NCBI GenBank assembly: GCA_030765235.1 | Contig: JAVCCW010000029.1 | Span: 12,939-76,938, forward strand | DNA from: Candidatus Gorgyraea atricola | GTDB taxonomy: Bacteria; Omnitrophota; Gorgyraeia; Gorgyraeales; Gorgyraeaceae | Length of the DNA stretch: 64,000 nucleotides | Direction of reading: 5' to 3' | Shown: piece by piece, positions 1,976 to 18,081 of the stretch | Position numbering within the stretch: position 1 is the stretch's first letter | Layout: every line of letters begins with the position of its first letter | The notes under the pieces: generated by a model | What the model was told of the DNA's origin: nothing | The model's input: only the letters and a program-made list of their open reading frames with translations | The model's database searches: none | Translations under genes and position numbers: made by a program

Positions 1976-2797
1976 GTGAAAAACGGGACAGAAAATAATT
2001 CCAGCCTATATAAAAAGCCGGTCCTTACTACTAAGGAAGCCGCGAAGTTATTGAAGGTCGGCGTCCAAACCATTAAGAATTACATCTACCAGGGAAAAAT
2101 CAAATCTTTTAAGACTCCGGGCGGTCATCACCGCATTCTTCGCTCTGATCTGCCTGCCCAGCTCGAAGAGACTTTTATGGCAGAGCTGAAAAACGGAACA
2201 GAGCAACTCATCAGGACCAATGGCGCTAAAGCAGCCCATGATACTCACGAGAGCTATCTTGTCATTATCAAGGCGCTGGTAAAGGCACTGGAGATGAGAG
2301 AGACACGCGATGACTCGCATCTGGATTTCGCGGCAAAGTGTTCTTTAAAAATGGCTCAGCGCCTGGATCTTCCTGAAGAGGAAAAAAAGAATCTTGAACT
2401 CGCGGCGCTTTTACGTGACATTGGAAAGATCGGAGTGAGTGAACAGATCCTTGGAAAACCGGGAAAACTCACTGAACAGGAATTCATGGTTATAAAGGAA
2501 CACCCGAAGATCGCGGAACGAATAGTGAGTGACATAGAATTTTTAGAAAAGACAAAACCTTTAGTAAGGCATCATCATGAAAGAATGGATGGCAGTGGAT
2601 ATCCTGATGGACTTAGCGGAAAAAATATTCCTTTAGGCGCGCGCATAATCGCGATAACAGGGGTGTATCAGGCATTAATATCTGACCGGCCTTACAGAAA
2701 GGCATACAGCGAAGAAGACGCAAAGGCCATAATAAAGAAAAGTTCTGGATCCCAGTTTGATCCAAAACTGGTTGATCTGTTCTTTGAAGTAACATAA
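1976..2797 (+). CDS. Excisionase-type HTH DNA-binding domain fused to an HD-GYP phosphohydrolase (putative c-di-GMP phosphodiesterase/regulator).
   Basis: N-terminus 'TTKEAAKLLKVGVQTIKNYIYQGKI...TPGGHHRI' is an MerR/excisionase-like HTH. HD-GYP motifs are 'LRDIGKIGV', 'HPK' and 'HHERMDGSGYPDGL'. Confidence 0.8.
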   Translation: MKNGTENNSSLYKKPVLTTKEAAKLLKVGVQTIKNYIYQGKIKSFKTPGGHHRILRSDLPAQLEETFMAELKNGTEQLIRTNGAKAAHDTHESYLVIIKALVKALEMRETRDDSHLDFAAKCSLKMAQRLDLPEEEKKNLELAALLRDIGKIGVSEQILGKPGKLTEQEFMVIKEHPKIAERIVSDIEFLEKTKPLVRHHHERMDGSGYPDGLSGKNIPLGARIIAITGVYQALISDRPYRKAYSEEDAKAIIKKSSGSQFDPKLVDLFFEVT

Positions 2798-3068: not shown

Positions 3069-3113
3069 TATAAAAACAGAAAGCGTTTACAAGTGATTCA
3101 AAAGGAGAATACC

Positions 3114-6100
3114 ATGAAGAAATTATTCGCAATTATGCTTACAGTATCAATTAGCTTATTTCAAATAATGCCGGTTCTAGCTGAACCGGTTTTTTTATCT
3201 GATAAGGACATGGATAGTGTAGTGGCAGGCTACATTGAAGAAAACACCCTGACCATGACAGATGATAGCCAGCGCGATTTAAAAGCTCTTAGCAATGTAA
3301 ATGATGTTGACTCAGCAGTAGCAGCGCAGTCAAACGTCACGTTTGGCGGATTTGATGTGGAAAGTTACAACAGCGCCGCAGTAGAAAATAATGATGCGGA
3401 TCCAGGCATAACATTATTAGAAAGTATAGAATCTAATAATTCCCTTAGCCTAACTGATTTTGCGCAGGCTGAACTCCTTGCGCTCAGCAATGTAAACTCT
3501 GTTGACTCTGCAAACGCGGTCCAGTCCAATATCACAGTGTGCTCACAGTTTCCTTTGAGCGAAAATAAAGCAGACGTAGTTAACATAGATGCTGATAGCG
3601 AAGAAGAGATAGACGCCATTAACACCCTTTCACTCTCAGGCAGTGCTCAGACTTCACTGCATGCCCTTAGCAACCTTAACTCAGTAGACTCAGCAGTGGC
3701 AGTACAGTCGAATGCGAATTTCTGCGGAGAGAGCGTAGTAAATTCTAACATCGCTTGTGTAGATAATTTTAATGGTGATGCGGGTGATGTAGATACCTTG
3801 GATGATAACCCGCATTCACTCTCGATCATAGACAATGCACAGGAAAACCTGGCAGCATTCAGTAATGTCAATGCAGTTGACTCAGCTGTGTGCGTACAGC
3901 TCAATACCTCTATTAATATAAGAGAGGACGCCACTAACACAAATGACGGCTATGCCACGAATAACTCCACGCATCAGGCCAACTACATGGATCGCGACAA
4001 TGACCTTTATATAGCTGGCAATGGCCAGGCAGGCACAAGCGGCATTGTAAGCATAAACGCGGTAGACTCCGCGGAACTCGCGCAGGTAAACATTACAGTC
4101 TTCAGCGGCACAATAGGCGTGATGGACACAAACATCGTGCGCATAGTTTTAAATGATGACGGCGTTACATCAGGAACAGACTGGGATACTGACACCAACA
4201 CCATGACGCTCACTGGCAATGCTCAGCAGGGCCTTATAGCGCTCCACAATGAAAACCTCGTGGACTCAGCAGCCACCATAGAAGGAAACTACGGCGCGTT
4301 TGGCTACAATGACTTTAGATTCAACGAGGCCTATCTTATTAATAAAGACAAGGACTCCTATATATACGCGTCAGTCAATAGAATGGATCTTTCAGAAAAT
4401 GCCCAAAAGGATGTCCAGGTCGTAAGTAACCTGAACGCAGTAGACTCTGCGCCTGGCGTACAGACAAACATTACTTATGATGCGCACTGGGCCATTGGCG
4501 AAAACTATGCTGAGGCTACTAATAATGACGGCACATCCAGCTATTGGACTGATACAGATAATTCGCTTACCATGTCTGGCAGCGCACAGGAAGACTTAAC
4601 AGCGCTCACAAGCACAAACTCAGTTGACTCTGCGTCTATGGTGCAGACAAACCTATTTGCCTTAACTGCCAGTATGTCAACCGCTGTGAATGAAGCAACT
4701 ATCCTAAATACAGACGGCAGTGCCAATGGCGACTCCTGGGGCATAACCTATAATGTACTGGATCTCTCAGGAGATTCCCAGAGAGGCCTTGTAGCACAGA
4801 GTAATCTTAATGAAGTAGATTCAGCTACCTTGGTCCAAACCAATATTACTGCTGAAGAGGAGCAGGGTACACTTTCTGTAATAAGCTCCTCAAATACAGC
4901 AGACGTGGATAATCTTGATATAGTAACTGAGGATCAAAATGGCTTGCGTTCCTATAATAAGCTTACCATGACTGATAATACCCAGAGATCTTTACATGCC
5001 TTGAGCAATATAAATAGCGTTGATTCTGCTAGTGCTGTGCAGTCTAATCTAACAGTTAATAGCTCCCTGCCACCTATTGACTCAGAGCTAGTAGGGCTCG
5101 AGCTTACTGGTTATGCGCCTCTAGCGCCTATCCAGACTGAGATAGTAGCGCTTGAACTAGCTGGTTTTACTCCTGGCGATGATATTGAGATCGCCTTTCC
5201 TATGATCACAGGTATTGAGCTAAGTGATTATACAGAAATAGGAGACGACATAACCTCTACTAACATTGCTACAGTAGACAATATTGATGGTACAGCATAC
5301 TGGATGGATGTGCCTGAAGGCGAGATAATGAATCTTTTGAAACTCTCAGGCAATAGCCAGAGGAATCTCAGCGCGCTCTCAAATCTCAACACAGTTGATT
5401 CAGCCAATGCAGTCCAGATCAACATCGTATACGGAAATGGCGCAGGTATCGCGTCAAGCAACACTGCTACAGTAAAGAATGACGATGGCTCTACTAATTT
5501 TATGGGTTCACTAGAAGACGGCGGCGTGAGTGATGACACAAATAGGCTTAGACTTGTAGATAATGTACAGAGAAAACTCGAGGCATTAAGCAATGCCAAT
5601 ACAGTAGATTCAGCTACAGCAGTGCAGGCAAATCTCGCTGTAGGCGTATCAAGCTCTACGCAGACCAATACCGCGGATGTCTTAAATCAGGGTAGAGATA
5701 TCCTGGGAGAAGACATGACAGACCCGAAGAATCGCTTGACCTTAAAAGACAATGCACAGAGAGGACTAACTGCGCTAAGTAACCTTAACTCAGTTGACTC
5801 TGCTAACACAGTCCAGTCCAATATTACTATAAACAATACTGAAGGAGAAGCAGGAGGCATTACAAATGTGAGCGTGAACAAGACATATGCAGCGTTTGAT
5901 ATAGACTGCAGGATATCTCGCGAAAGACGTCATGCACCTGATATTGAACCTTGCGTTGACATCTCTTGCTGCCCTATATGGTATCTTGGAATAGAGTCAG
6001 AGCCTGGCACAAGAAACTATGGTAATGATGCAAAGAATACACTTAAGCTTGAAGGTGAGGCCCAGATGAAACTTACCGCGCTCAGTAACCTCAATGCTGT

Positions 6101-6965
6101 TTCCAGCGCCAGCGCAGTGCAGTCAAATATCACTGCGAATAAGATAGGTACAGTCACAGGCCCGATTGAAAATTTCAGCCTGAACATAGCTTCTGTTGAG
6201 AATATAACTGAAGATGGAGATAATACACTTAAGCTGCAAAACAAGGCCCAGAAAGACCTGTTAGCGCTCAGTAATGCTAATAGCGTTGACTCTGCCAATG
6301 CAGTGCAGTCGAATATCAGTATCAATGGCTCAGAAAATATCAGCATAAACAAGGCTGATGTGTATAATTCCAGCGGGGACAATCTCTGGCCAGAGAAGAA
6401 AACTGATAAGCTCACTATCAAAAACCACGCCCAGGAGGATCTAACTGCGCTCAGTAACCTTAATACAGTCTCATCAGCTAATGCAGTACAGTCTAACATT
6501 ACCGCGAATAATGTTACAGGCAGCGCCCTTAATGTAAGCGTGAACATTGCGCAGGTAAAAAATGCTCGCGGCACAGGTGAAAATAAACTCATACTTAAAA
6601 ACAAGGCGCAAAGAGGACTCACAGCTCTCAGCAACGTAAACTCTGTAGAAAGCGCAAATGCTGTGCAGTCCAACATCAGTGTCACCTCAACTGAGGATGT
6701 AGAAGCATGCGTTTCCAATATCAGCGCGAACTTCGCGAATGTCGAGAATAAAGATGAGGACGAAAATGAAGCGGATAAGCTCAATACCTTGAGCCTATCT
6801 AACCATGCGCAGCAGAATCTCATGGCACTCAGCAACTTAAATACAGTAAGCAGCGCAACAGCTGTGCAGTCCAACGCCGCGGTATCAAACGCTGCAGGTA
6901 TAAATATCAGCATGAACAATGCCCGAGTAGTTAACTCAGGCAGTTTTAACAACATAAGCGATTAA
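3114..6965 (+). CDS. Secreted giant repeat protein, paralog A: 18 copies of the repeat 'L-x-L-x-[DG]-x-AQ-x-x-L-x-ALSNLN-x-VDSANAVQSNIT', with a Cys-rich central module.
   Basis: RBS AAGGAG then ATG at 3114 (the ORF track's first Met at 3093 is probably upstream of the true start). Signal peptide MKKLFAIMLTVSISLFQIMPVLA. Repeats counted directly in the translation. Central module is 'CVDISCCPIWYLGIESEPGTRNYG'. Confidence 0.8.
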   Translation: MKKLFAIMLTVSISLFQIMPVLAEPVFLSDKDMDSVVAGYIEENTLTMTDDSQRDLKALSNVNDVDSAVAAQSNVTFGGFDVESYNSAAVENNDADPGITLLESIESNNSLSLTDFAQAELLALSNVNSVDSANAVQSNITVCSQFPLSENKADVVNIDADSEEEIDAINTLSLSGSAQTSLHALSNLNSVDSAVAVQSNANFCGESVVNSNIACVDNFNGDAGDVDTLDDNPHSLSIIDNAQENLAAFSNVNAVDSAVCVQLNTSINIREDATNTNDGYATNNSTHQANYMDRDNDLYIAGNGQAGTSGIVSINAVDSAELAQVNITVFSGTIGVMDTNIVRIVLNDDGVTSGTDWDTDTNTMTLTGNAQQGLIALHNENLVDSAATIEGNYGAFGYNDFRFNEAYLINKDKDSYIYASVNRMDLSENAQKDVQVVSNLNAVDSAPGVQTNITYDAHWAIGENYAEATNNDGTSSYWTDTDNSLTMSGSAQEDLTALTSTNSVDSASMVQTNLFALTASMSTAVNEATILNTDGSANGDSWGITYNVLDLSGDSQRGLVAQSNLNEVDSATLVQTNITAEEEQGTLSVISSSNTADVDNLDIVTEDQNGLRSYNKLTMTDNTQRSLHALSNINSVDSASAVQSNLTVNSSLPPIDSELVGLELTGYAPLAPIQTEIVALELAGFTPGDDIEIAFPMITGIELSDYTEIGDDITSTNIATVDNIDGTAYWMDVPEGEIMNLLKLSGNSQRNLSALSNLNTVDSANAVQINIVYGNGAGIASSNTATVKNDDGSTNFMGSLEDGGVSDDTNRLRLVDNVQRKLEALSNANTVDSATAVQANLAVGVSSSTQTNTADVLNQGRDILGEDMTDPKNRLTLKDNAQRGLTALSNLNSVDSANTVQSNITINNTEGEAGGITNVSVNKTYAAFDIDCRISRERRHAPDIEPCVDISCCPIWYLGIESEPGTRNYGNDAKNTLKLEGEAQMKLTALSNLNAVSSASAVQSNITANKIGTVTGPIENFSLNIASVENITEDGDNTLKLQNKAQKDLLALSNANSVDSANAVQSNISINGSENISINKADVYNSSGDNLWPEKKTDKLTIKNHAQEDLTALSNLNTVSSANAVQSNITANNVTGSALNVSVNIAQVKNARGTGENKLILKNKAQRGLTALSNVNSVESANAVQSNISVTSTEDVEACVSNISANFANVENKDEDENEADKLNTLSLSNHAQQNLMALSNLNTVSSATAVQSNAAVSNAAGINISMNNARVVNSGSFNNISD

Positions 6966-6976
6966 TCGTAGACCCC

Positions 6977-7011
6977 TGTCATTGCGAGGCCCAGCCTTGT
7001 GTCATTGCGAG
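6977..7011. repeat. Two direct copies of TGTCATTGCGAG, belonging to the second palindromic repeat family (TGTCATT/AATGACA termini).
   Basis: Seen at 6977-6988 and 7000-7011. Related sequences occur at 11477-11500, 17211-17270 and 41511-41574. Confidence 0.4.
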
Positions 7012-7152
7012 CGAAGCGAAGCAATCTCAATAACAGGACGTAAACTCCCTATACCAGGCCTAAAAAGGTGGCCTTTAACCACCAACATGGGAGAGAGGCC
7101 TTAAAATAGATCGGTGAAACATGGTGAAGTTAAAAACAAGGAGGAGAAAGTA

Positions 7153-10100
7153 ATGAGAAAGTTAGTATCGATTATCGCAGCTTTAAGTATCATTTTCTCA
7201 GGCGCTATTTCTCCAGTATTAGCAGCTGAAGTCCTGACAGACGAAGGCTTGGACTCTATTGTTGCAGGCGACCTTCCAGTCGGCGCTACTTTAGAGAACA
7301 ATACCTTAGATCTAAAAGAACAATCTCAGAGGTTCTTCAAAGGTCTAAGCAATGCAAATACTGTAGATTCAGCAAATGCAGTACAGTCAAACGTTACTAT
7401 GACAGGTGGCGGTCTGGCTGTAAGTATGAACGCAGCTGATGTTGACAACTTGGACGGTTTGAATGATGATTATTATGGCAGAGAGCAGAACAATGATCTG
7501 AAATTAAAAGATGATGCACAGAGCGGTTCATCAGGGTATCCACCAGCTGATGTTGGACAGGATTTCTTCGCAGCTTTGAGCAATCTCAACACTGTTGACT
7601 CTGCTAATGCTATCCAGTCAAACATCACTGCTGGTAATGATGACAAATTCAGCGGCAACAATGCTGATGTATTGAATGATGATGGTACGACTACTTGTCA
7701 CGTAGAGACTAACAATCTGATGATACTCAAAGACCAGGCACAGAATAGGCTTTGGGCACTCAGCAATGTTAACACAGTTGATTCAGCAAATGCTGTCCAG
7801 TCAAACATCACTGTGAATACAGGTGTTACTGGTGATAATGTAGCTGATGCTACAAGTCGTAACTGTGCTATAGTAGAGAATGCAGATGGCACATCAGTTG
7901 CAGAACCACTGCCAGAAACTGAACCTGCAAAACTGGTTAACAACAAGCTGGTCATAGACAATACTGCTCAGGCAGAACTCATGGCACTAAGCAACTTAAA
8001 CACAGTTGATTCTGCTAATGCAGTTCAGTCAAACATCAGTATTCATGGCGCAGATAATAACAATCAAAACCAGGCAGAGGTGCTTAATGAAGATGGTATA
8101 GCACCAACTGGTCAGAAGATTTTGAACAACACCTTAAAGATCAAGGATCAGGCACAGCATGATTTAATTGCACTCTCGAACTTGAATGCAGTTGATTCAG
8201 CAAGTGCTGTTCAGTCTAACATTACCTATGCTCATTGTAAAAACATCAATACTAACAAGGCTGATGTTGAGAACAATGATGGTGGAGTTGGAGTGGGTGT
8301 AGTAGATTCAAGCGGCAACCCAATGGATCCAGTAGTAGATAACAATGACGCACTTTCTCTTGGGACAAATGTCCAGGGTGGCCTTACTGCGCTTAGCAAT
8401 ATCAATTCAGTTGATTCTGCTAATGCAGTTCAGTCAAATATCACTGTTAATGACAGTGATTATGAAGGAACAGCAGGGCCAACAAAGGTGTTGAATATTA
8501 ACAAGAACATAGCTGGTGTTTTAAACACTGATGCTGATCCAGAGACAGATGGTGGAAATAATTCCATACTGCTCGGAGGCTTAGCTCAGAGCGGACTTAT
8601 GGCACTCAGCAATATTAATACCATTGATTCTGCTAACACAGTCCAGTCCAATGTCACTGTAAATAATACAGTTGGCGATGTTGGAGAGATTCACAACATA
8701 AGTAAGAATGAGGCCTTTGCATCATTTGACCTTTACTACCATGGTGGTTGCTGTGGCGGAAATGGTATAGATGATGGCGGATGTGTTGACATTAACTGTC
8801 CACCAATAAGTTGCATAGGTATAATTTCTGAACCTTGCACAAAGAACTATGCAGGTGATGGGAATAATATCCTTACACTTGAGGGTAGTGCACAGATTGG
8901 CTTAATGGCACTAAGTAACCTCACAGCTGTTTCCAGTGCAAGCGTTATACAATCCAACATTACTGCCAATGGTATTGGTAAGGAAGATGATGGATCTGGA
9001 ACAATGGTTGGAAGCGCAAATAATGTCAGAAACTTCAGTGAGAACATAGCTTCTGTTTGGAATTCTAGTGGAACAGGAGACAATACTCTTGAGTTAATGG
9101 ACAATGCACAGCAAGGTCTTTGTGCGCTCAGCAATGTTAACACAGTTGATTCAGCAAATGTTGTTCAGTCAAATATTACTGTAACAGCAGATGATGTGAA
9201 TCTTTGTGCTGAAGTTGGCTGGAATGTGGACTTTGATCGGCTTGTTTTAGGTCTTTGCCCGCAGGGCGACTCATTACTTGCTATTCAGTATCCTGATCTA
9301 GGAGAAATAGGACCAGATCTCTTAGGTGCTCTTAACAATAACATGTTTACATCTGCCACTATCAATGGTTTTGCACCTGATACAGAAAGCTGGATTTTCT
9401 TCAGGAGTTCATTAGGCAATCCGTCATGGGTCAATTGCTTAAAGCATATGTTTAAAGGTAAAGCGCTTTTAAACTACAGCATGAACGCAGCTGATGTCTA
9501 TGATGCAAGCGGTGACTCTCCGGAAGACAGTACAACTGATTTACTTACCATTGAAGTCAGCGCTCAGAAAAATCTAAGCGCATTGAGCAATCTCAACACA
9601 GTTGGTTCTGCAAATGCAGTTCAGTCAAATATAACTGTAAACTGGGTTGGCGGTGAGCTTAACAATGGACTTGTCAGCATCAATGCAAATCTTGCTAAAG
9701 TCCAAAATGCTGCTGGTATTGGAGAAAATAAGATGAAGCTAGCAGGCAGTGCCCAGGAAGAGCTAACAGCATTGAGTAATCTTAACACGGTTGAAAGCGC
9801 AAATGCAGTTCAGTCCAACGTCACACTTACCAGGGCATCAGGCGCAAGCGAAACATGCTTTGGTTGTGAAGGTGCTGCAATGGCATGTACTTTCAATTTG
9901 AATTCTGCTGAGGTTAGAAATTATGATAAGGTTAGAGATGTTGTTCAAGAAACTCCTATAGATGTACCTGATAGGGTTAATTCTTTGAAACTATCTGGTA
10001 TGGCACAGCAAAACCTTATCGCATTAAGTAACCTTAATGCAGTAAATTCAGCAACAGCTGTTCAGTCAAACATAACAGTGAGCAGCGGCATAGGCATGAA

Positions 10101-10155
10101 TGTTAGTGTCAATACCGCATGCGTATCAAACGTAGGTAGAAGTTTTGCAGATTAA
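7153..10155 (+). CDS. Secreted giant repeat protein, paralog B: 12 copies of the same ALSNLNTVDSANAVQSNIT-type repeat, with a Cys-rich central module.
   Basis: RBS AAGGAGG then ATG at 7153. Signal peptide MRKLVSIIAALSIIFSGAISPVLA. N-terminal motif 'LTDEGLDSIVAG' is shared with paralog A ('LSDKDMDSVVAG'). Module 'CVDINCPPISCIGIISEPCTKNYAG' is homologous to that of paralog A. Confidence 0.8.
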   Translation: MRKLVSIIAALSIIFSGAISPVLAAEVLTDEGLDSIVAGDLPVGATLENNTLDLKEQSQRFFKGLSNANTVDSANAVQSNVTMTGGGLAVSMNAADVDNLDGLNDDYYGREQNNDLKLKDDAQSGSSGYPPADVGQDFFAALSNLNTVDSANAIQSNITAGNDDKFSGNNADVLNDDGTTTCHVETNNLMILKDQAQNRLWALSNVNTVDSANAVQSNITVNTGVTGDNVADATSRNCAIVENADGTSVAEPLPETEPAKLVNNKLVIDNTAQAELMALSNLNTVDSANAVQSNISIHGADNNNQNQAEVLNEDGIAPTGQKILNNTLKIKDQAQHDLIALSNLNAVDSASAVQSNITYAHCKNINTNKADVENNDGGVGVGVVDSSGNPMDPVVDNNDALSLGTNVQGGLTALSNINSVDSANAVQSNITVNDSDYEGTAGPTKVLNINKNIAGVLNTDADPETDGGNNSILLGGLAQSGLMALSNINTIDSANTVQSNVTVNNTVGDVGEIHNISKNEAFASFDLYYHGGCCGGNGIDDGGCVDINCPPISCIGIISEPCTKNYAGDGNNILTLEGSAQIGLMALSNLTAVSSASVIQSNITANGIGKEDDGSGTMVGSANNVRNFSENIASVWNSSGTGDNTLELMDNAQQGLCALSNVNTVDSANVVQSNITVTADDVNLCAEVGWNVDFDRLVLGLCPQGDSLLAIQYPDLGEIGPDLLGALNNNMFTSATINGFAPDTESWIFFRSSLGNPSWVNCLKHMFKGKALLNYSMNAADVYDASGDSPEDSTTDLLTIEVSAQKNLSALSNLNTVGSANAVQSNITVNWVGGELNNGLVSINANLAKVQNAAGIGENKMKLAGSAQEELTALSNLNTVESANAVQSNVTLTRASGASETCFGCEGAAMACTFNLNSAEVRNYDKVRDVVQETPIDVPDRVNSLKLSGMAQQNLIALSNLNAVNSATAVQSNITVSSGIGMNVSVNTACVSNVGRSFAD

Positions 10156-10177
10156 TTAGCACCTAAAGTAACATTGT

Positions 10178-10203
10178 GTAGGGCAGGTTTAAACCTGCCC
10201 TAC
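10178..10203. repeat. REP palindrome variant: GTAGGGCAGGTTTAAACCTGCCCTAC.
   Basis: Perfect 26-nt palindrome centred on GTTTAAAC. Confidence 0.75.
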
Positions 10204-10216
10204 ACAAGCACACATA

Positions 10217-10252
10217 ACTTTACATTTGAAGCAAGACCTTAAATGTAAAGTT
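10217..10252. repeat. Second hairpin: AACTTTACATTT ... AAATGTAAAGTT.
   Basis: 12-bp inverted repeat. The TTTACA/TGTAAA hairpin type recurs next to the REP copy at 11414-11434. Confidence 0.4.
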
Positions 10253-10278
10253 AAACATTGAAATAGAGGTGAATTGAC

Positions 10279-10671
10279 ATGAAGAAGTTAGTAGCATTAA
10301 CAATTAGCCTATTAGTAGTTGCGATGGCTATACCTTGTTTTGCTGGAAGCGCTCGTATCCTCAGTGATGAGGAGCTTGATATGGTTTCAGCTAAAGGTGT
10401 TGATCAGCCAGAGGTGATTTGGGAGATCCTCCCTATGGTCTCAGGCAACATGGAAGATTTCTTTGCTAATGGCGTACCGTATGACCTTGGTAGTGGTAAC
10501 ACAGTTTTTACCATGGGCGGGAACGCGCAGCAGAATCTACAAGCCTTAAGCAATATAACTGCGGTTAATAGCGCAGTCGGAGTCTTGATAAATATCACTG
10601 TTGTTAACGGCAATCTTACTGGGACAGTTAATCAGACCAACAACGCCCAGATAACCAACTTCGTATTCTAG
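10279..10671 (+). CDS. Small secreted single-repeat paralog of the giant repeat proteins (candidate minor/nucleator subunit).
   Basis: Signal peptide, N-terminal 'ILSDEELDMVSAKG' family motif, one repeat 'GGNAQQNLQALSNITAVNSAVGVLINIT', and a C-terminal aromatic residue. Confidence 0.7.
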   Translation: MKKLVALTISLLVVAMAIPCFAGSARILSDEELDMVSAKGVDQPEVIWEILPMVSGNMEDFFANGVPYDLGSGNTVFTMGGNAQQNLQALSNITAVNSAVGVLINITVVNGNLTGTVNQTNNAQITNFVF

Positions 10672-10696
10672 TAGGCCAGGTTTAAACCTGGCCTAC
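10671..10696. repeat. REP palindrome, consensus copy.
   Basis: GTAGGCCAGGTTTAAACCTGGCCTAC. Confidence 0.85.
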
Positions 10697-10716: not shown

Positions 10717-11412
10717 ATGAGAAAGCATAACAGTATATTTATATTTGTCTTTATTTTAGCGATGTCTTTAGTAGCAGAGCCTTGCTTTGCTGCTAGTATT
10801 GGCATTGCAGGCAGGATAAACAAGAACGTAAAGAGTCTCAAAGAGATACGTCATCAGAATATTGAAGCTCAGAGTCTGGATTACTCCTGTGGTCCGGCGT
10901 CTCTAGCTACTCTTCTGAGCTATTACTTCGGCGATAAAGTCACCGAAGTAGACGTACTCGAGACGCTCCTTACGACCTGCGACATTGAAAAGGTAAAGGC
11001 AAAGAAGGGCTTTTCGCTCTTAGACCTGAAACGTTTTGCCCAGTCCCGCGGCTACGATGTAGTCGGCTATAAGATGGACCTGGAGTTTCTCGTTGAGCTC
11101 GATAAGCCAGTCTTGATCCCCGTGAGTATAAAGGACTACTCGCATTTTGTTATATTCCGGGGGCTAGAGGGCGATCGCGTGTTCATAGCTGACCCAGTAC
11201 TGGGCAACATGACCATGCGCTACGAGAAGTTCGAGAGGATCTGGGAAGGCGGCATAGGCCTGGTGCTTAATGGCAGAGACGATGAGAAACTAAAAGACTC
11301 TCCTTTAAGGATAAGCGGCCAAGAAGAGGCAGTTTTCGCGGACGCTACGACTGTACGAAGGCTATTCGGAGTAAATTCCCTAGGCACCATCTTCGCGGAT
11401 GGCGAGTTCTAA
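10717..11412 (+). CDS. Periplasmic peptidase C39-like domain protein (stand-alone, with a signal peptide).
   Basis: Signal peptide. Catalytic-Cys motif 'QSLDYSCGPASLATLLSYYFG' and a downstream His 'DYSHFVIF', as in double-glycine/C39 peptidase domains. Confidence 0.6.
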   Translation: MRKHNSIFIFVFILAMSLVAEPCFAASIGIAGRINKNVKSLKEIRHQNIEAQSLDYSCGPASLATLLSYYFGDKVTEVDVLETLLTTCDIEKVKAKKGFSLLDLKRFAQSRGYDVVGYKMDLEFLVELDKPVLIPVSIKDYSHFVIFRGLEGDRVFIADPVLGNMTMRYEKFERIWEGGIGLVLNGRDDEKLKDSPLRISGQEEAVFADATTVRRLFGVNSLGTIFADGEF

Positions 11413-11550: not shown

Positions 11551-12465
11551 ATGAGACATTTGATGGTATTTTTTATTCTCTGGAGTAGTATGTTTCTTGC
11601 TGCACCCATCAGCATAGGCGCTAGCCTGGCTGAAGAGCAAAGGGAAATAGAGGGGGTAGTAGTAGGGTATTACTCTGCCAAGATCAGCTGGGCAACAGAT
11701 GAGCCAGCTACTTCACAGGTAGACTATGGCACATCAGGGTTTATATATGAACAGAGTTCCCCAGAGCGCAACAGCCTATTAATCAATCACGAGATAATCC
11801 TGAGCAACCTCAAGCCATCTACCCTATATCATTACAGGATAAGGAGTAAGGACGCTTTTGGCAATGAGGGTGTGAGCCAGGACCTTACATTTAAGACTCT
11901 GGATTTCTCCATAGCTGATAATAAAGCACCCACTATATCTAATATAAAGGTAGCCTCTCTTGCAGGCGTAAAAGAGCCTACCTATTTATCAGATGAGGAG
12001 GCAGCTGCTATTATAGGTGCAGGCCCGGCAGCGCCTAAAGGCAATTTCCCGGGTGGTAAGATAATTGCAGTAGCAAAGGCAAAACCAAAAGCAGAACCAA
12101 AGGCAGAGACAAGGCATATACAGGAGGGATCTGAGCCTGCAGCTTCAGGCATGATCCATTCAGCAGGTCAGCTTACTAAGCACGAAGCGCCAGTGGAAAA
12201 GACGCTTGTGCAAAAGGGCGGATTACTCATGCCTAAAGGCACATGGCAGTATGAGCCAAGTTTTGCCTATGCTCATACATCAGCAAATCGTATTGCCATA
12301 AGCGGATTTACAGTGCTGCCGGTTCTAATAATAGGAAGCATTTCCGTAGACGAAGTAAAAAGGGACATACTTATACAAACCAATACCTTTCGCTATGGGT
12401 TATTTAATAATTTCCAGGTAGAAGTAAAGGTCCCATCCCATATAGGTATCAATACGAGCGTATAA
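11551..12465 (+). CDS. Secreted FN3-like domain protein with an Ala/Pro/Lys-rich linker. It appears to be the N-terminal part of a frameshifted FN3 + outer-membrane beta-barrel gene.
   Basis: Signal peptide. 'KPSTLYHYRIRSKDAFGNEG' is FN3/purple-acid-phosphatase-N-like. Linker 'KAKPKAEPKAE'. C-terminal beta-strand-like segments run into the next ORF. Confidence 0.55.
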   Translation: MRHLMVFFILWSSMFLAAPISIGASLAEEQREIEGVVVGYYSAKISWATDEPATSQVDYGTSGFIYEQSSPERNSLLINHEIILSNLKPSTLYHYRIRSKDAFGNEGVSQDLTFKTLDFSIADNKAPTISNIKVASLAGVKEPTYLSDEEAAAIIGAGPAAPKGNFPGGKIIAVAKAKPKAEPKAETRHIQEGSEPAASGMIHSAGQLTKHEAPVEKTLVQKGGLLMPKGTWQYEPSFAYAHTSANRIAISGFTVLPVLIIGSISVDEVKRDILIQTNTFRYGLFNNFQVEVKVPSHIGINTSV

Positions 12466-13043
12466 CCACAGCAGACAATATAGAAACTACAGATAATCTG
12501 TCTGGACTTGGTGATATTGAGGCAGGATTATATAAGCAGATAGCGTTTGAGCATGGATGGGTACCAGATCTAATAGCTGGGGTCAGTGTAAAGTCAGACA
12601 GCGCCGATAAAAGCCCTTATGAGAATCCAGGAGATATTGGCTTAGGAACAGGGCACTGGGCAGTAAAAGGGAGCCTGGTGTGGGTAAAGTCAAGCGACCC
12701 GGCGATTGTCTTTGGTGGATTGAACTATACATGGAATATGGAAGATGATATTACAAATTACGGCAAGATAAATCCTGGAAATACTATTGGATATTCTCTT
12801 GGAATGACCTTTGCCTTGAATTACCAGGTAGCATTAAACCTGGGCGTGGACCAGAGCGTTACCGAAAAGATGAAAATAGATGACACTCCAGTAAATGGCT
12901 CATTTACTAATGTAGCCAGTTTTAAATACGGTTTTGTCTGGTCTGTAAACAAGAACTTTTCCTGTGATGTATCCGCAACACACGGCCTAACAGAAGACTC
13001 ACCTGACATGGTCCTGGAAGTCCGCTTCCCGTATACCTTCTAA
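12411..13043 (+). CDS. Outer-membrane beta-barrel C-terminal domain (MetA/transporter-like), ending in Phe. It continues the previous ORF in a different frame.
   Basis: Frame 0 is open from 12411, overlapping the 304-aa ORF, whose stop is at 12463-12465. Amphipathic alternating strands and a C-terminal 'RFPYTF'. Confidence 0.55.
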   Translation, partial: FPGRSKGPIPYRYQYERITTADNIETTDNLSGLGDIEAGLYKQIAFEHGWVPDLIAGVSVKSDSADKSPYENPGDIGLGTGHWAVKGSLVWVKSSDPAIVFGGLNYTWNMEDDITNYGKINPGNTIGYSLGMTFALNYQVALNLGVDQSVTEKMKIDDTPVNGSFTNVASFKYGFVWSVNKNFSCDVSATHGLTEDSPDMVLEVRFPYTF

Positions 13044-13136: not shown

Positions 13137-13162
13137 GTAGGCCAGGTTTAAACCTGGCCTAC
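13137..13162. repeat. REP palindrome, consensus copy. A half-copy, GTTTAAACCCGGGCTAC, lies at 13102-13118.
   Basis: GTAGGCCAGGTTTAAACCTGGCCTAC. Confidence 0.85.
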
Positions 13163-17279: not shown

Positions 17280-17305
17280 GTAGCCCAGGTTTAAACCTGG
17301 GCTAC
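17280..17305. repeat. REP palindrome variant: GTAGCCCAGGTTTAAACCTGGGCTAC.
   Basis: Perfect palindrome with compensatory changes in both arms. Confidence 0.8.
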
Positions 17306-17322: not shown

Positions 17323-18081
17323 ATGAAAAAGAAATTCGAAGGAGATGTTTATTTTACACCAAAGCAGGCTGCAGAGTATTTTAATCTGAGTCTGTCTACT
17401 ATTAAGAATTACATCTATGCGGGCAAGCTTAGGACGCTAAAGACGCCAGGGGGCCATCACAGGATCAGCAAGGCTGAACTCTTTGCTACCCTGGATCACG
17501 GGGTCGCATCCAGCGACTCGCTTTCTTCAGCTATATTCCTGTCCAACATCACCATGGCCTTATTCAATGCGATCGGCCCTGCAGGAAAATCCCTATCCCT
17601 GCATGTGCAGAATGTCTCTGAGCTATGCAGTCAGATAGCAAAGAAGCTGGGCTTAAGCGATCTAGATCTAAATCGCATAAAAATAGCAGGCCTTGTCCAT
17701 GACATAGGGCATATAGGCATAGACAAGAGCATACTTTTAAAATCAGGGCCATTGAGCGCCCAGGAATATGAATTAATAAAGAAACACCCGACACTGGGCC
17801 ACCAGACATTGAGTTCGATAAAAGAATTGAACGGCATCGCGGACCTTGTGATCCAGCATCATGAGAGGATAGACGGGACTGGTTACCCAAAAGGCCTTAA
17901 AGGAAGTGACATCCATGTGGGCGCGCGCATTATAGCTATTGCAGAGGCGTATGATTCAATGGTCTCAGAGCATTCGTATAAGACGCCTGTTTCAAAGAAC
18001 AAGGCCATAGCTGAGCTTATGCAGCATAAGGGCACGCAGTTTGATAAAGATATCGTGGAGATCTTTACTAAGATCATATGA
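17323..18081 (+). CDS. Second excisionase-type HTH – HD-GYP protein, paralogous to 1976-2797.
   Basis: 'TPKQAAEYFNLSLSTIKNYIYAGKL...TPGGHHRI', 'HDIGHIGI' and 'HHERIDGTGYPKGL'. Confidence 0.8.
   Translation: MKKKFEGDVYFTPKQAAEYFNLSLSTIKNYIYAGKLRTLKTPGGHHRISKAELFATLDHGVASSDSLSSAIFLSNITMALFNAIGPAGKSLSLHVQNVSELCSQIAKKLGLSDLDLNRIKIAGLVHDIGHIGIDKSILLKSGPLSAQEYELIKKHPTLGHQTLSSIKELNGIADLVIQHHERIDGTGYPKGLKGSDIHVGARIIAIAEAYDSMVSEHSYKTPVSKNKAIAELMQHKGTQFDKDIVEIFTKII

Follow-up and report, generated by a model that had tools for sequence, protein, structure and literature searches.

We analyzed a 64,000-nucleotide stretch of DNA (the window) from contig JAVCCW010000029.1 of assembly GCA_030765235.1, a metagenome-assembled genome (MAG) of 'Candidatus Gorgyraea atricola' (Omnitrophota), and studied three paralogous genes in it, here called A, B, and C. 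The three open reading frames (ORFs), all on the plus strand, lie where the original prediction had placed them, while the flanking genes for a C39 peptidase and a FapF-like outer-membrane barrel had been missed. On balance, we consider it somewhat probable that this organism builds a Fap-like (FapD/FapF-type) surface-fiber system with A, B, and C as its secreted subunits. The N-terminal motif shared by the three proteins looks, from its sequence, like a cutting signal for the neighboring C39 protease, and the presence of the C39 and FapF-like genes makes this its most likely meaning.

Subunit genes, peptidase, and barrel

The two giant subunits probably start at ATG 3114 (A) and ATG 7153 (B), which gives them the lengths of the NCBI proteins P0002 (A) and P0001 (B); an upstream GTG at 3093 would extend A to 1290 aa. 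A is identical to P9L93_05715 and B to the NCBI hypothetical protein P9L93_05720. With a hidden Markov model built from the repeat cores, we found 18 repeats in A, 12 in B, and one in C; the modal period was 61-65 aa, and the unit measures ~62 aa. The repeat consensus, ..N.L.l...AQ..L.ALSNlN.VDSAnaVQSNitv, is rich in Asn, Ser, and Ala, and Asn and Gln hold fixed positions; Gln12, Ser26, and Ala27 were invariant across 50 repeat cores, and an extra strand-like N-x-A-x-V-x-N motif was present in 40 of 49 linkers. Asn makes up 12.6-13.1% of A and B, and aromatic residues are scarce. The two proteins align by BLASTP over 877 residues with E = 2e-106, so their similarity is not due to chance. Between A and B, the proportion of differences in the repeat cores was 0.20-0.27 at nonsynonymous sites (pN) against 0.56-0.89 at synonymous sites (pS).

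The original prediction of a new repeat family holds as far as sequence comparison reaches. No Pfam or NCBIfam model matched A, B, or C at E <= 1. Members of the family are rare: an exhaustive phmmer search with B against 1.84 billion representative proteins returned only 26 matches. Those other than A and B were weak, with E no better than 1.7e-8, and were mostly unnamed proteins of ~300 aa that share one layout: a signal peptide, the segment LSDxEMDxIAAG followed by DW, an N-terminal repeat, a Ser/Thr-rich middle, and a C-terminal repeat, with one repeat at each end. None of these relatives scored above threshold in Pfam or NCBIfam. A word-indexed homolog search was insensitive, giving three proteins for B and six for an N-terminal profile, whose own input sequences it missed. 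The literature on FilB, DUF6160, Gorgyraea, and FapD contained no description of the family or of a tandem Sec-plus-double-Gly signal, and the Omnitrophota literature that we examined did not mention the system. A related organism carries an extra 157-aa paralog (locus L001, 447-920; RLSDAELEAVSAG followed by KF, with two degenerate repeats) upstream of its HD-GYP regulator gene, and this paralog has no counterpart in the window.

Genome contigs were also scanned with the C39 alignment, and in other loci the subunit gene or genes, the C39 gene, and the FapF-like gene occur in the same order. This was true of five independent loci (L003, L005, L006, L007, and L008), which are all the other loci long enough to show the order and which derive from MAGs of Omnitrophota or other members of the Planctomycetes–Verrucomicrobia–Chlamydiae (PVC) group and from metagenomes. 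In full, the order in the five loci is one to three subunits, then a distinct minor subunit, the C39 peptidase, and the FapF-like barrel. C belongs to the minor class, which has a leader ending in A-[K/E/Q]-G and one, more hydrophobic, C-terminal repeat and is always encoded immediately upstream of the C39 gene. A Halieaceae locus (L009) was dropped, as it represents a different, small-peptide C39 system.

The C39 protein has 231 aa and its own signal peptide, and it matched FilB (2.7e-38), FapD (NF058616; 1.3e-35), and the Pfam family Peptidase_C39 (1.3e-19). Its catalytic set of Gln52, Cys58, His143, and Asp159 is conserved with two homologs, and its best solved relative is the double-glycine protease LahT150 (6MPZ; 4.5e-9). 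With a Sec signal, the catalytic Cys and His, and the predicted periplasmic location, it has the features expected of a FapD member and appears from its sequence to be a homolog of FapD rather than an equivalog.

In the barrel gene, the 5-nt sequence CCCAT is duplicated in tandem at 12432-12441, which breaks the frame, and removing one copy restores a 495-aa protein. The repaired ORF matched FapF (NF058560) at 9.3e-38 and the solved FapF structure (PDB 5O65) at 8.6e-27, the latter match covering the whole barrel; it has the features of a FapF outer-membrane barrel, encoded by a gene that is frameshifted in the assembly. The N-terminal Fn3-like domain of the barrel (11551-12000) corresponds to PF16656 (6.6e-9), and the barrel homologs of L003 and L006 carry charged N-terminal segments rich in Lys, Glu, Gln, and Arg. 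The frameshift may be an assembly error or a real inactivation. If it were real, the locus could be decaying, the system dead, and A, B, and C its relics; the FapF-like homolog of L005 (10639-11963) is likewise split into two ORFs. We consider such decay very unlikely, given that the reading frames of A, B, C, and the C39 gene are long and intact, that pN in the repeat cores lies well below pS, and that the source is a MAG, in which an assembly error is possible.

The leader motif

Straight after the Sec signal peptide, A, B, and C carry the motif L-S/T-D-x-x-L/M-D-x-V/I-x-A-G/K, found at precursor residues 28-39 as FLSDKDMDSVVAG in A, VLTDEGLDSIVAG in B, and ILSDEELDMVSAK in C. Across the six reading frames of the window, a strict regular expression for the motif matched these three proteins only, and 42 of 44 relatives carry it. 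The N-terminal motif that had been noticed earlier is therefore real and more strongly supported than was then known, although the Val or Ile earlier assigned to its first position does not hold for A, where the residue is Phe.

We counted residues by position among 41 nonredundant sequences, numbering backward from the putative cleavage site. Four positions were not constrained by the search pattern: Glu, Gln, or Asp at -8 (38/41), Val or Ile at -4 (41/41), Asp or Glu at +1 (30/41), and Trp at +2 (28/41). Among the positions that the pattern did constrain, Met or Leu at -7 and Ala at -2 were found in all 41 sequences, Ser or Thr at -11 in 39, Leu at -12 in 38, Asp at -10 in 37, and Gly at -1 in 36, its place being taken by Lys, Glu, or Gln in the class of C. 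In a separate alignment of 24 sequences, the Ala-Gly pair was invariant. Leu-12 lies at median precursor position 27, a few residues past the predicted signal-peptidase site.

The published consensus of C39 leaders is Leu-12, three residues, Glu-8, Leu-7, two residues, and Val/Ile-4 (PMC6363468), and the motif fits this double-glycine leader consensus at Leu-12, Glu-8, Leu/Met-7, and Val/Ile-4, with small residues at -2 and -1. The site itself deviates: characterized C39 substrate leaders end in Gly-Gly, Gly-Ala, or Gly-Ser (PMC6363468), and the leaders studied here have Ala rather than Gly at -2. One relative, P0022, lacks exactly the leader and reads EWEII directly after its signal peptide, where others read AG followed by DWVIL; the loss of precisely this segment fits a removable propeptide with an Ala-Gly boundary.

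The motif could instead be a targeting or chaperoning signal that is bound by the C39 protein or the FapF-like channel and retained on the subunit, much as the N22 segment of CsgA in curli or the C39-like domains in RTX transporters would suggest. The atypical Ala at -2 for C39 cleavage and the Lys, Glu, or Gln that takes the place of Gly-1 in class-C subunits speak for such a signal, and inactive C39-like domains that serve as substrate chaperones are known (PMC5557850). We nevertheless find it improbable that the motif stays uncleaved, as the peptidase retains the full Gln/Cys/His/Asp set, the active-site cysteine of FapD is needed for secretion in Pseudomonas (PMC5557850), and the segment missing from P0022 runs precisely up to the Ala-Gly boundary.

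Table 1. Coordinates of the main features in the window
Feature	Position	Strand	Remark
HTH (helix-turn-helix) + HD-GYP (c-di-GMP phosphodiesterase-type) regulator	1976..2797	+	Pfam/NCBIfam
Paralog A, giant subunit	3114..6965	+	1283 aa from ATG 3114; 18 repeats
A signal peptide	3114-3182	+	Leader motif directly after
A leader motif LSDKDMDSVVAG, positions -12 to -1	3195..3230	+	
A Cys module	5895..6029	+	aa 935-979 of the 1290-aa ORF
A module core CVDISC..PI...GI.SEP.T.NY	5952-6023	+	
Paralog B, giant subunit	7153..10155	+	1000 aa; 12 repeats
B leader motif LTDEGLDSIVAG	7234..7269	+	
B Cys module	8725..8859	+	aa 538-582 of the 1013-aa ORF
Paralog C, minor subunit	10279..10671	+	130 aa; one repeat at 10495-10608
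C leader variant LSDEELDMVSAK, then Gly (A-[K/E/Q]-G class)	10360..10395	+	
C39 cysteine peptidase, stand-alone, own Sec signal peptide, FapD/FilB-like	10717..11412	+	
FapF/FilC-like outer-membrane barrel, Fn3-like N-terminal domain	11551..13043	+	Frame broken

The HTH + HD-GYP gene upstream of A is also found upstream of the A ortholog in L001, and family searches identified EpsL-, Wza-, and Wzc-like genes for exopolysaccharide (EPS) export downstream of the barrel gene. A second, paralogous HTH + HD-GYP regulator gene lies at 17323-18081, so that two such genes, both encoding the motif HHExxDGxGYP, bracket the fiber operon and the first EPS export genes. Farther upstream (214-1908), a 564-aa repetitive ORF rich in Thr, Ala, Gly, and Asp matches no Pfam or NCBIfam family and, in the frame listed, lacks a signal peptide; it could belong to a further large surface protein. 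A 20-nt palindrome resembling repetitive extragenic palindromes (REP), GGCCAGGTTTAAACCTGGCC, occurs in 10 copies in the window against 0 expected by chance. Four of them fall in the intergenic gaps after B (10181-10200), C (10674-10693), the C39 gene (11437-11456), and the FapF-like gene (13140-13159), and the others are at 17283, 41535, 51871, 54487, 55034, and 55066. The palindromes could act as transcript-stabilizing or attenuating hairpins.

The cysteine module

Both giant paralogs contain a Cys-rich module, which the original prediction had interpreted as a conserved hinge or disulfide knot between two repeat arms. The module strings quoted there are exact, and the two copies align without gaps within the 877-residue alignment of A and B. 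The degree of conservation is that of an ordinary linker: the modules are 42% identical (19/45) with a pN of 0.39, the other linkers 33-57% identical with a pN of 0.28-0.42, and the repeat cores 61-71% identical. Only two cysteines, the C-x4-C pair of CVDIxC, are conserved among the four in A and the six in B. Every repeat unit has a variable loop after its N-x-A-x-V-x-N strand and before the N-x-L-x-L strand that comes next, and the module lies at this position.

The arrangement in two arms reflects the mosaic structure of A. Residues 1-840 of A are collinear with P0003 (56-80% identity), the A ortholog of a related organism (run SRR22388041) with 22 repeats, and residues 840-1290 with B residues 436-1013. 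Repeats A14-18 and B8-12 match one to one and form a five-repeat C-terminal cassette common to A and B, and the module lies within it; P0003 lacks the module. The first repeat after the module (A14 and B8) does read AVSSAS in both proteins, as had been observed, but the replacement of Asp is not special to that repeat, since VDSA has changed to VSSA, VGSA, VESA, or VNSA in four of the five C-terminal repeats of A and likewise of B. We rejected a recent conversion event between the two genes at the module: saturation at synonymous sites (pS 0.6-0.9) and a DNA identity of only 60-70% between the repeats speak against it.

We found no other copy of the module in the phmmer search with B or in two scans of Joint Genome Institute (JGI) metagenomes, one for the module and one for the AVSSAS-type repeat, both of which came back empty. 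The module had no Pfam or NCBIfam match, and the best hit of a profile search against PDB had an E of 0.56. Cysteine content is erratic across the wider family, many members having none, and large loop insertions of unrelated sequence occur at other repeats (A 655-745 and B 698-800). To a hinge, disulfide knot, or metal site joining two functionally distinct repeat arms we give very little credence, even though the module sits at the boundary where A turns from P0003-like to B-like, A and B share 56% identity over its second half (CVDIxC-PI-GI-SEP-T-NY) despite the saturated synonymous sites, and B has six Cys within 30 residues: the linker-level identity, the two conserved cysteines, the absence from P0003, and the lack of further copies all tell against it. 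On these sequence comparisons, the module is best described as a lineage-specific expansion of one inter-repeat loop rather than a general functional element of the family, and it has no apparent importance beyond this lineage.

A candidate fiber-secretion system and its relatives

In the model that we favor, Sec would export each precursor, and signal peptidase would take off the signal peptide, leaving a propeptide of ~15 residues with the core L(-12)-S/T-D-x-E/D(-8)-L/M(-7)-D-x-V/I(-4)-x-A(-2)-G(-1). The gene two places downstream of B encodes the periplasmic C39 peptidase, which would bind this leader as a short helix and probably cut it after Ala-Gly. The unfolded subunit would then cross the outer membrane through the FapF-like barrel, and outside the cell the imperfect 62-aa repeats, rich in Asn, Gln, Ser, Ala, and Val, would fold into a stacked beta structure, either solenoid or amyloid-like, and make a fiber or a component of an adhesive matrix. 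C, with one repeat and a leader ending in A-K-G instead of A-G, would be a minor subunit of a conserved type and may act as nucleator or anchor. The neighboring genes for HD-GYP regulators and EPS export suggest that the fiber is made together with the matrix.

The same export route could also deliver A and B as monomeric beta-helical adhesins of the cell surface, comparable to autotransporter passengers or to the giant adhesins of Omnitrophota, instead of as polymerizing amyloid-like subunits. With 1000-1300 aa and 12-18 repeats, the two proteins are far larger than the three-repeat FapC and FapB (PMC12822426), variable loop insertions such as those in their repeats are typical of adhesin solenoids, and Omnitrophota are thought to attach to host cells by large surface proteins (PMC10066038). 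CsgA homologs, however, reach ~60 repeats (PMC12822426), the co-encoding of major and minor subunit classes is typical of nucleated fibers, and the C termini of A and B show no anchoring domain or sorting signal. We regard monomeric adhesins as rather unlikely.

Several points weigh against the fiber-system model. Beyond the homologous neighbors and the conserved motif, every part of it, from cleavage and secretion to fiber formation, fold, and the role of C, is something that we infer. At -2, where characterized C39 substrates hold Gly, the residue is always Ala. The C39 protein scores far under the equivalog cut-offs of NCBIfam (122.7 vs 330 bits for FapD and 131.9 vs 475 for FilB), as does the barrel (130 vs 700 bits for FapF and 53.7 vs 630 for FilC), and the barrel gene is frameshifted in the assembly. 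As the Fap proteins of Pseudomonas carry no canonical C39 site and it is still unclear what FapD acts on (PMC5557850; PMC12822426), the analogy with Fap borrows no proven mechanism, and an hhalign comparison of the N-terminal profile with FilA gave a probability of 3.8%, offering no support for homology. Both AlphaFold2 models were of low confidence, so that a beta-solenoid or amyloid fold of the repeats is a proposal. For residues 395-700 of B, modeled with aligned windows of four repeats each from A, B, and P0003, the mean predicted local distance difference test score (pLDDT) was 37.6 and the module appeared as coil; for P0017, a 300-aa relative modeled with 20 natural homologs, the mean was 53.4, with the repeats below 50. 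The Ser/Thr-rich middle of P0017 (residues 118-248) was predicted as a single very long beta-hairpin (pLDDT 70-82), and a C-x2-3-C pair occurs at the tip of this type of hairpin in 4 of 23 members.

Among described systems, the closest in organization is Pseudomonas Fap (fapABCDEF). In both, a stand-alone periplasmic C39 peptidase and a FapF-type barrel are encoded directly downstream of genes for Sec-exported, Asn/Gln-rich subunits with imperfect repeats, major and minor subunits are co-encoded, and biofilm and c-di-GMP genes are associated. The subunits themselves differ: no relation in sequence to FapB, FapC, or FapE was detectable for A, B, or C, and in place of the three GN-x-GN-x2-AG-x2-NQQ-x-N repeats that define FapB/FapC-type subunits, they have 18, 12, and one repeats of another consensus, the 12-18 repeats of A and B being ~62 aa long. 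No model for the FapA chaperone or the minor subunit FapE matched among the proteins scanned across 214-20564, and the barrel has an Fn3-like N-terminal domain where FapF has a periplasmic coiled coil. Another difference is the near-canonical double-Gly-type leader, which is reportedly missing in Fap proteins (PMC5557850). Rouse et al. describe these proteins as devoid of canonical C39 sites and call the target of FapD unclear (PMC5557850), while a December 2025 review states that FapD "is thought" to process FapE and FapF (PMC12822426).

In NCBIfam, the Fil system of Acinetobacter provides the top match of the peptidase (FilB) and the second match of the barrel (FilC), both homologous but under the family cut-offs. 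The A. baumannii fil locus (L011, 4702-5547) encodes FilA (NF050077, DUF6160), FilB, FilC, and FilD, and in FilA, as in our proteins, the signal peptide is followed by a short segment, MDDAALSAATGQ and then DG, of the form x-D-x-x-L-S-x-x-T-G-Q. A, B, and C had no match to FilA or DUF6160; the relative P0010 matched DUF6160 weakly and below the cut-off (E = 0.047). Given the hhalign probability, we treat the resemblance to FilA as an analogy of layout and not as homology. Unlike fil, the locus has no genes for FilD (FadL-type), FilE, or FilF. On an Acinetobacter plasmid (L010, 1522-4712), small Sec-signal proteins with LELSRQEMKDTQGA, ending in TQGA at the presumptive boundary, are encoded beside a FapD-like peptidase and a small barrel. 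By analogy, the Fil and plasmid cases, with TGQ before DG and with TQGA, together with this locus suggest a general tandem signal for periplasmic C39 systems.

The leader resembles those of PCAT/AMS systems (ComA, LahT, PCAT1) in Leu-12, the acidic residue at -8, Leu/Met-7, Val/Ile-4, and the small residues at -2 and -1, and the peptidase is homologous to LahT150. In those systems, however, the leader is at the extreme N terminus rather than after a Sec signal peptide, the peptidase is a cytoplasmic domain of an ABC exporter rather than a free periplasmic protein, the site is Gly-Gly, Gly-Ala, or Gly-Ser rather than Ala-Gly, and the cargo is a small peptide rather than a repeat protein of 130-1280 aa. 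With curli (CsgA/CsgB), the proteins share (predicted) secretion and Asn/Gln-rich imperfect repeats in variable number; both also have a minor or nucleator subunit of its own and a targeting segment at the N terminus, which in curli is on the mature subunit; unlike curli, they have no Pfam match to Curlin_rpt (PF07012) and a repeat three times longer, and the locus has no CsgG, CsgE, or CsgF genes.

We read the locus as an instance of Fap/Fil-type secretion, a kind of system already described, in which the substrate family is new and the protease signal is unusually easy to read. Whether it and its relatives in Omnitrophota and other PVC bacteria form an undescribed branch of FapD/FapF-type secretion is a matter on which we are close to evenly divided, leaning slightly toward doubt. 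Such a branch would combine a Sec signal and a double-glycine-type leader in tandem, the leader may end in an invariant Ala-Gly followed by Asp/Glu-Trp, and giant imperfect-repeat fiber subunits (12-22 repeats) would be a new cargo class. Published surveys of fap operons required FapB/C-type repeats (PMC12822426), and systems like this one will have gone uncounted; FapD/FapF-type export may serve more cargo families and phyla than now recorded.

In Pseudomonas Fap, FapD is essential, and its substrate and recognition sequence are described as unclear (PMC5557850; PMC12822426). If our reading is true, the leader would be the first substrate signal of periplasmic C39 peptidases that can be clearly read, in a field where the target of Pseudomonas FapD has stood as a question since 2017, and FilA/DUF6160 of Acinetobacter may follow the same logic. 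A conserved, near-canonical leader beside a homologous peptidase and barrel makes the pairing of protease and substrate directly testable with peptides. For the Omnitrophota, uncultured and ultra-small bacteria that may depend on hosts, the locus suggests a candidate surface fiber or adhesin adjoining EPS and c-di-GMP genes.

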